Assembly: GCF_003334785.1 (NCBI RefSeq)
Contig: NZ_QOWV01000003.1
From: Escherichia coli
Lineage (GTDB): Bacteria > Pseudomonadota > Gammaproteobacteria > Enterobacterales > Enterobacteriaceae
Strand: one strand, 5' to 3'
Length of the DNA: 64,000 nt
The notes beneath the pieces were generated by a model. The model was not told the origin of the DNA, did no database searches, and worked only from the letters and a program-made list of their open reading frames with translations. Position 1 is the first letter of the stretch. Each line of letters starts with the position of its first letter. The translations under genes were made by a program, and so were the position numbers. Positions 50,948-51,134 of this stretch are shown in pieces.

Positions 50948-51023
50948 GCGGGAATAGCTCAGTTGGTAGAGCACGACCTTGCCAAGGTCGGGGTCGCGAG
51001 TTCGAGTCTCGTTTCCCGCTCCA
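50948..51023 (+). tRNA. glyV: tRNA-Gly (GCC), copy 1
   Basis: GCGGGAATAGCTCAGTTGGTAGAGCACGACCTTGCCAAGGTCGGGGTCGCGAGTTCGAGTCTCGTTTCCCGCTCCA, 76 nt; which of glyV/X/Y each copy corresponds to is arbitrary. Confidence 0.96.
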
Positions 51024-51058
51024 AAATTTGAAAGTGCTGTAAGGCACAGACCACCCAA

Positions 51059-51134
51059 GCGGGAATAGCTCAGTTGGTAGAGCACGACCTTGCCAAGGTC
51101 GGGGTCGCGAGTTCGAGTCTCGTTTCCCGCTCCA
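51059..51134 (+). tRNA. glyY: tRNA-Gly (GCC), copy 2 (identical to copy 1, 35-nt spacer)
   Basis: Identical 76-nt sequence; symbol arbitrary among glyV/X/Y. Confidence 0.96.

Follow-up and report, generated by a model that had tools for sequence, protein, structure and literature searches.

The glyVXY locus holds two tRNA-Gly(GCC) genes

Why does the glyVXY locus of this Escherichia coli sequence have two tRNA-Gly(GCC) genes, where that of K-12 MG1655 has three? The window (the whole stretch of DNA that was analysed, 64 kb in length) contains two tRNA-Gly(GCC) genes and one tRNA-Phe gene and no further tRNA genes according to ARAGORN, and the array itself consists of three parts:

50948-51023, plus strand: tRNA-Gly(GCC), copy 1 (ARAGORN; Rfam RF00005, 69.1 bits), with the same sequence as glyV, glyX and glyY
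51024-51058, plus strand: intergenic spacer of 35 nt, identical in the alignment to the MG1655 glyX-glyY spacer (s2)
51059-51134, plus strand: tRNA-Gly(GCC), copy 2, in the glyY position (ARAGORN; Rfam, 69.1 bits), 100% identical to copy 1

The two copies are identical over 78 nt, and their starts lie 111 nt apart, which leaves the spacer of 35 nt. Upstream, an open reading frame matching orn ends at 50737, and downstream, one matching queG runs on the minus strand from 51404; the array thus occupies the site between orn and datA/queG, as does the E. coli glyVXY operon. A sequence-only reading of this DNA had described two identical 76-nt genes 35 nt apart and no third copy anywhere in the window, and ARAGORN and the alignment bear out this description, including its coordinates. 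No trace of the first MG1655 spacer was detected either: its specific 19-mer, GAAAAGTGCTGCAAAGCAC, has no match in the window with up to two mismatches allowed.

In MG1655 (NC_000913.3), glyV, glyX and glyY (b4163-b4165) occupy 4392360-4392658 and are separated by spacers of 36 nt (s1, glyV-glyX) and 35 nt (s2, glyX-glyY). The three reference copies that the same reading had named are therefore real, and its own proviso, that K-12 too might have just two, falls away. Its arithmetic was also right, as a four-way alignment shows exactly 112 bp (76 + 36) to be gone, namely one tRNA gene together with s1, while s2 is retained unchanged; at the three positions that distinguish the two spacers, the retained one is pure s2. 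In all other respects—position next to orn and yjeV/queG (datA), tRNA sequence, upstream region, s2, attenuator and downstream DnaA boxes—the window is identical to the MG1655 operon. The locus is a copy-number allele of glyVXY that departs from the canonical form, in which s1 (36 nt) and s2 (35 nt) separate three genes.

This resemblance extends well beyond the array. Compared with MG1655 4341000-4406500 by BLAST, the whole window falls into two collinear blocks of 99.98% identity whose overlap is confined to the array, and from 41624 to 57407 there are zero differences outside it. The likeness to MG1655 proposed from the letters alone thus stands for gene order but not for identity with MG1655 itself, as the 64 kb differ, outside the array, by seven SNPs and one indel (positions from the alignment):

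7638, 36191, 41154, 41623, 57408, 60160 and 60386: SNPs relative to MG1655
4219: inserted C relative to MG1655

Elements flanking the array

Expression of the array and the activity of the neighbouring datA locus are connected. PglyV-X-Y has been placed upstream of glyV, TglyV-X-Y is an attenuator that permits read-through into datA, and IHF binding at datA is under the control of transcription reading through from the gly promoter (PMC10950094). The corresponding features of the window are:

50863-50899, plus strand: putative glyVXY promoter, read by eye, identical to MG1655
50863-50868, plus strand: -35 hexamer TTGCAG, with a 16-nt spacer to the -10 hexamer
50885-50890, plus strand: -10 hexamer TATAAT
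50891-50899, plus strand: G+C-rich discriminator GCGCCTCCC
51160-51189, plus strand: leaky terminator/attenuator (TglyV-X-Y), a hairpin at 51160-51183 followed by U5, identical to MG1655
51220-51228 and 51382-51390: DnaA-box matches of datA, identical to MG1655

A promoter consensus scanner returned no sigma-70 site upstream of the array; the -35 hexamer matches at just 3 of 6 positions, which is below the scanner's rule, and the exact assignment of the hexamers is accordingly putative. The attenuator hairpin is weak (-9.4 kcal/mol, z = -1.25 by RNA folding). datA, the DnaA-inactivating locus, starts directly after the array, and window positions 51135-51400 are identical to MG1655. With the upstream promoter region and the downstream attenuator and datA conserved in this way, a contraction would remove none of these elements and only shorten the transcript by 112 nt.

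The nearest relatives have three copies

Which strains are closest to the window, and what does their array look like? None of 5,426 complete RefSeq E. coli genomes matches the full window exactly. To the right of the array, 12.8 kb of the window are 100% identical to the natural isolates IAL7250, IAL7252, IAL7254, IAL7255, AF58, NCTC9087 and E423. To the left, over about 50 kb, IAL7250 and NCTC9087 differ from it by three substitutions each and no indels, making them the closest finished relatives with three SNPs in about 62 kb overall; AF58 and E423 were compared on the right flank only. IAL7250, NCTC9087, AF58 and E423 all possess the three tRNA-Gly genes at MG1655-like spacing. Of the window's changes, just the one at 41623 occurs in none of the other genomes compared; it is synonymous in epmA. 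Together, these comparisons place the window in a near-K-12 phylogroup-A haplotype distinct from MG1655. Because its nearest relatives have three copies, the two-copy state would be derived and recent, having arisen on the terminal branch of this lineage.

Most differences between the window and MG1655 are common to natural phylogroup-A isolates (IAL7250, NCTC9087). We had also considered the window as K-12 bearing a mutagenesis signature—the changes relative to MG1655 are mostly G-to-A, and one lies in mutL—and rejected this idea, the SNPs downstream of the array being common to natural isolates. When only window positions 39000-63999 are searched, the best full-length matches are other two-copy genomes, with five mismatches.

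Copy number of glyVXY across E. coli

To place the two-copy array in context, we took a census of the 5,426 complete RefSeq genomes, in which each possible structure had its own query, flanked by 200 nt at either end, and the E-value limit was so stringent that only a single end-to-end alignment passes. Counts based on at least 80% coverage in an ordinary search (626 and 583) were discarded as copy-number classes, since there overlapping pieces were joined inconsistently and classes were mixed, for instance for arrays with an ERIC-like insert and for one-copy arrays. The census gave:

1 copy: 15 genomes
2 copies, plain: 81 genomes
2 copies with an ERIC-like element of about 120 bp between them: 26 genomes
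3 copies, MG1655 type: 3,689 genomes
3 copies with the ERIC-like element in spacer 1: 1,578 genomes
4 copies: 16 genomes
apparently 5 copies: 1 genome
unclassified: 20 genomes

Three copies are therefore the rule (5,267 of 5,426, or 97.1%, with flank identities from about 98% to 100%), two copies occur in 107 genomes (2.0%), and one copy and four or more account for 0.3% each. The array both contracts and expands, within a range of 1 to 5 copies. Within the O157:H7 group alone, we saw two (Xuzhou21), three (AR-0428) and four (17B6-2) copies. At this frequency, the two-copy state is too common to be remarkable.

Several annotated two-copy genomes (ECCTRSRTH03, CP041110; PK8276; CEA106S; EC359/CY34) match the 587-nt locus of the window at 100% identity and have tRNA-Gly annotated twice, but belong to haplotypes other than the window's. 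EC359 carries the MG1655 allele at all five SNP sites of window positions 39000-63999, and CEA106S a third combination. Since two-copy arrays are thus found on at least three near-K-12 haplotypes (the window, EC359 and CEA106S), they appear to be recurrent, whether as independent events or as independent artefacts. Among the 60 plain two-copy arrays listed, span lengths, spot-checked on individual records, assign about 26 to those that keep s2, like the window, and about 34 to those that keep s1, the pattern to be expected where misalignment may involve either of the two neighbouring repeat pairs. Eight clonal OkiPb isolates have one two-copy array in common, a point in favour of real contraction.

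Enlarged arrays, seen in NZ_CP157165 (UTAK-1), CP043821 (RM10740), CP019953 (M8) and others, group by sequence background across laboratories; one such group consists of three isolates from mice, another of five genomes with 98.3-98.4% identity. As four- and five-copy arrays cannot be produced by collapse, their existence shows that misalignment really occurs at glyVXY in nature.

Lost in the cell or in the assembly?

We regard a genuine, recent contraction in the strain's lineage as the most likely reading, though only narrowly so and with about an even chance of being correct. The glyV and glyX direct repeats would have misaligned and the unit between them would have been lost, through replication slippage that does not need RecA or through an unequal exchange between sister chromosomes, with the breakpoints hidden in the 86-nt tract that is identical between these two units in MG1655 (93 nt for the glyX and glyY units). 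The expected product, upstream region-tRNA-s2-tRNA-downstream region, is exactly the structure of the window. The size of the loss, 112 bp, and the purely s2 character of the spacer left behind place the crossover in glyV/glyX. What was lost is a whole repeat unit, its breakpoints lie inside identical sequence, and the closest relatives keep the longer array, all of which is consistent with contraction by misalignment.

Such events have precedent. PMC7063769, summarising Bzymek & Lovett 2001 and Bi & Liu 1994, states that E. coli direct repeats shorter than about 200 bp and close together rearrange largely independently of RecA, slipped misalignment during replication or between sister chromosomes leading to deletions or expansions. 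The glyVXY array shares the relevant properties, with identities of 86-93 nt set 111-112 bp apart, whole-unit products, and both losses and gains in the population; it differs in that here the mechanism is deduced from the product alone. That the loss took place in the cell rather than in the assembler, and by which molecular route, is likewise something we infer.

The principal alternative, to which we give slightly less than an even chance, is that the organism has three copies and that an assembler or polisher merged two of the near-identical units of 111/112 bp. As we picture it, in a de Bruijn graph whose k is below about 86-103 the tRNA would be one node with a self-loop, and the two spacer variants, 97% identical, would form a bubble; once the bubble is popped and the loop traversed once, the result is precisely tRNA-spacer-tRNA with a clean spacer. 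The caution voiced from the sequence alone, that contraction and assembly collapse look identical, holds: both yield the same two-copy sequence, and the odds between them are about even.

Deposited records point to such collapse at glyVXY. The ATCC 25922 assemblies CP009072 and CP149500 ('FDA strain Seattle 1946') agree over 6.5 kb in everything but the array, of which the former has two copies and the latter three. MC1061 (CP195014) is recorded with one copy and DH10B, which we take to descend from MC1061, with three, while OV2 (CP195020), a different K-12 strain whose accession is adjacent to that of MC1061, also has one copy, along with a queG annotated as frameshifted. More generally, one-copy arrays follow the apparent submitter batch rather than the lineage: judging batches from strain names and accession numbers, 11 of the 15 one-copy records come from three of them, on differing sequence backgrounds. 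These comprise six TUM strains (at least three sequence backgrounds), CP148116/119/133, and MC1061/OV2. NC_018658 (O104:H4 2011C-3493) is another one-copy record. From the paired records, collapse demonstrably affects glyVXY in genomes deposited as 'complete'.

How do these considerations bear on the window itself? Collapse would account for the excess of reduced over enlarged arrays (122 to 17), and the two-copy state is a singleton against all close relatives checked, four out of four having three copies. The window, moreover, may stem from a draft assembly, where collapse is likelier, given that the complete-genome collection contains no exact match to it. Against collapse, nothing else in the window suggests poor assembly; the absence of indels and the mere three substitutions relative to its relatives over about 62 kb point to a high consensus quality, which favours real contraction. 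Also, reads of at least 150 nt can thread every junction of the array, as the longest span needed, calculated from the spacer differences, is about 103 nt. The retained spacer is clean s2 rather than an s1/s2 chimera, although collapse could give a clean spacer as well. We searched for chimeric spacers as a signature of collapse in the two-copy records CP55_Sichuan and CEC15 (99.7% identity) and in E94 and detected none; all three have clean s2-type spacers, with the mismatches falling in the downstream flank, an outcome that fits both explanations.

Consequences of a two-copy array

If the contraction is real, what would it do? The sole effect to be expected is that of one tRNA-Gly(GCC) gene fewer, that is, a modest drop in dosage; provided that glyW is present as in K-12, the genome would have three such genes instead of four. 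MG1655 remains viable when the entire glyVXY operon is deleted, so that the loss of one copy should be tolerable, and strains deprived of redundant tRNA genes grow more slowly in rich medium but often benefit in poor media (PMC9981150). By extension, going from three copies to two should have a small, condition-dependent effect, probably a slight cost during fast growth and none, or even a benefit, in poor media.

We consider it improbable, though worth stating, that a real contraction tunes datA. In such a scenario, the loss of one set of processing sites and of 112 bp of transcript could shift read-through into datA, and copy number would act as a natural tuning knob; if true, an array of 1 to 5 copies would link tRNA-Gly supply to the timing of replication initiation. 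Still less probable is that the contraction is real and was selected, with a lower tRNA-Gly(GCC) dosage or the 112-bp-shorter distance from promoter to datA being adaptive in the strain's niche. Both the frequent benefit of tRNA gene loss in poor media and the control of IHF binding by gly-promoter read-through would lend themselves to such an explanation, yet among the records listed two-copy alleles occur singly and scattered, or in small clonal groups, with no sweep through a large lineage, and the attenuator and datA are unchanged. An equally faint prospect, that two copies are ancestral in the window's lineage and that MG1655 and others gained their third by duplication, can draw on the capacity of the array to expand but is effectively ruled out by the three copies in nearly all genomes of the census and in relatives identical to the window over the 12.8-kb flank, which have both s1 and s2 of MG1655, as remaking the very same s1 by duplicating s2 is implausible.

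We return to a recent contraction, or else a collapse, of a three-copy array. That E. coli strains typically differ by one tRNA gene copy more or less is established, and the gly array has been cited as an example of tandem identical copies (McDonald et al. 2015, PMC4539685); the 'three or four copies in all E. coli' given there is slightly too narrow in view of the 1 to 5 copies of our census. The tRNA gene duplications of P. fluorescens SBW25 (PMC10954465) are large-scale events, which differ from the single 112-bp units at issue here. With 107 RefSeq genomes already annotated as having two copies, the window carries an ordinary, known variant and nothing new; it adds a further example to a recognised polymorphism or to a recognised artefact. 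Taken alone, having one fewer of the four tRNA-Gly(GCC) genes, which are redundant, is of little weight, as this change is tolerated and has been annotated before. Of wider use may be the census, as a copy-number baseline (97% three, 2% two, 0.3% one, 0.3% four or more), and the lesson from the ATCC 25922 pair and the MC1061 and DH10B records that glyVXY copy number is not to be trusted from an assembly alone. Since the array lies directly upstream of datA, which is regulated via gly-promoter transcription, studies of datA in non-K-12 strains would do well to check the length of the array and the presence of the ERIC-like insertion, carried by about 30% of strains.

Further observations

The insertion deserves a brief description. 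In about 30% of the complete genomes (1,578 with three copies and 26 with two), 120/121 bp are inserted at the end of the first spacer, as in the SC516 locus (825-981); the site equals the gap between window positions 51023 and 51024 in strains with the first spacer. We take its core, GAATCCTTGGGAACTTACAAAAGTATGTGACTAAGGTGAGTGAAGGCAGCC, to resemble the ERIC/IRU repeat consensus. Copies at 95% identity or above are found in about 1,606 genomes, whereas relatives elsewhere reach only about 75%. The element sits within the tRNA operon transcript, directly upstream of datA. Depending on copy number (1 to 5) and on whether the element is present, the distance between the promoter and datA changes by up to several hundred bases.

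A second observation concerns the one other tRNA gene of the window, tRNA-Phe(GAA) (pheU), which ARAGORN places at 21139-21214 on the minus strand. About 200-450 bases to its left, MG1655 and close relatives have an annotated, frameshifted and partial tyrosine-recombinase/integrase pseudogene (yjdQ), which we read as the remnant of an island formerly integrated at pheU.
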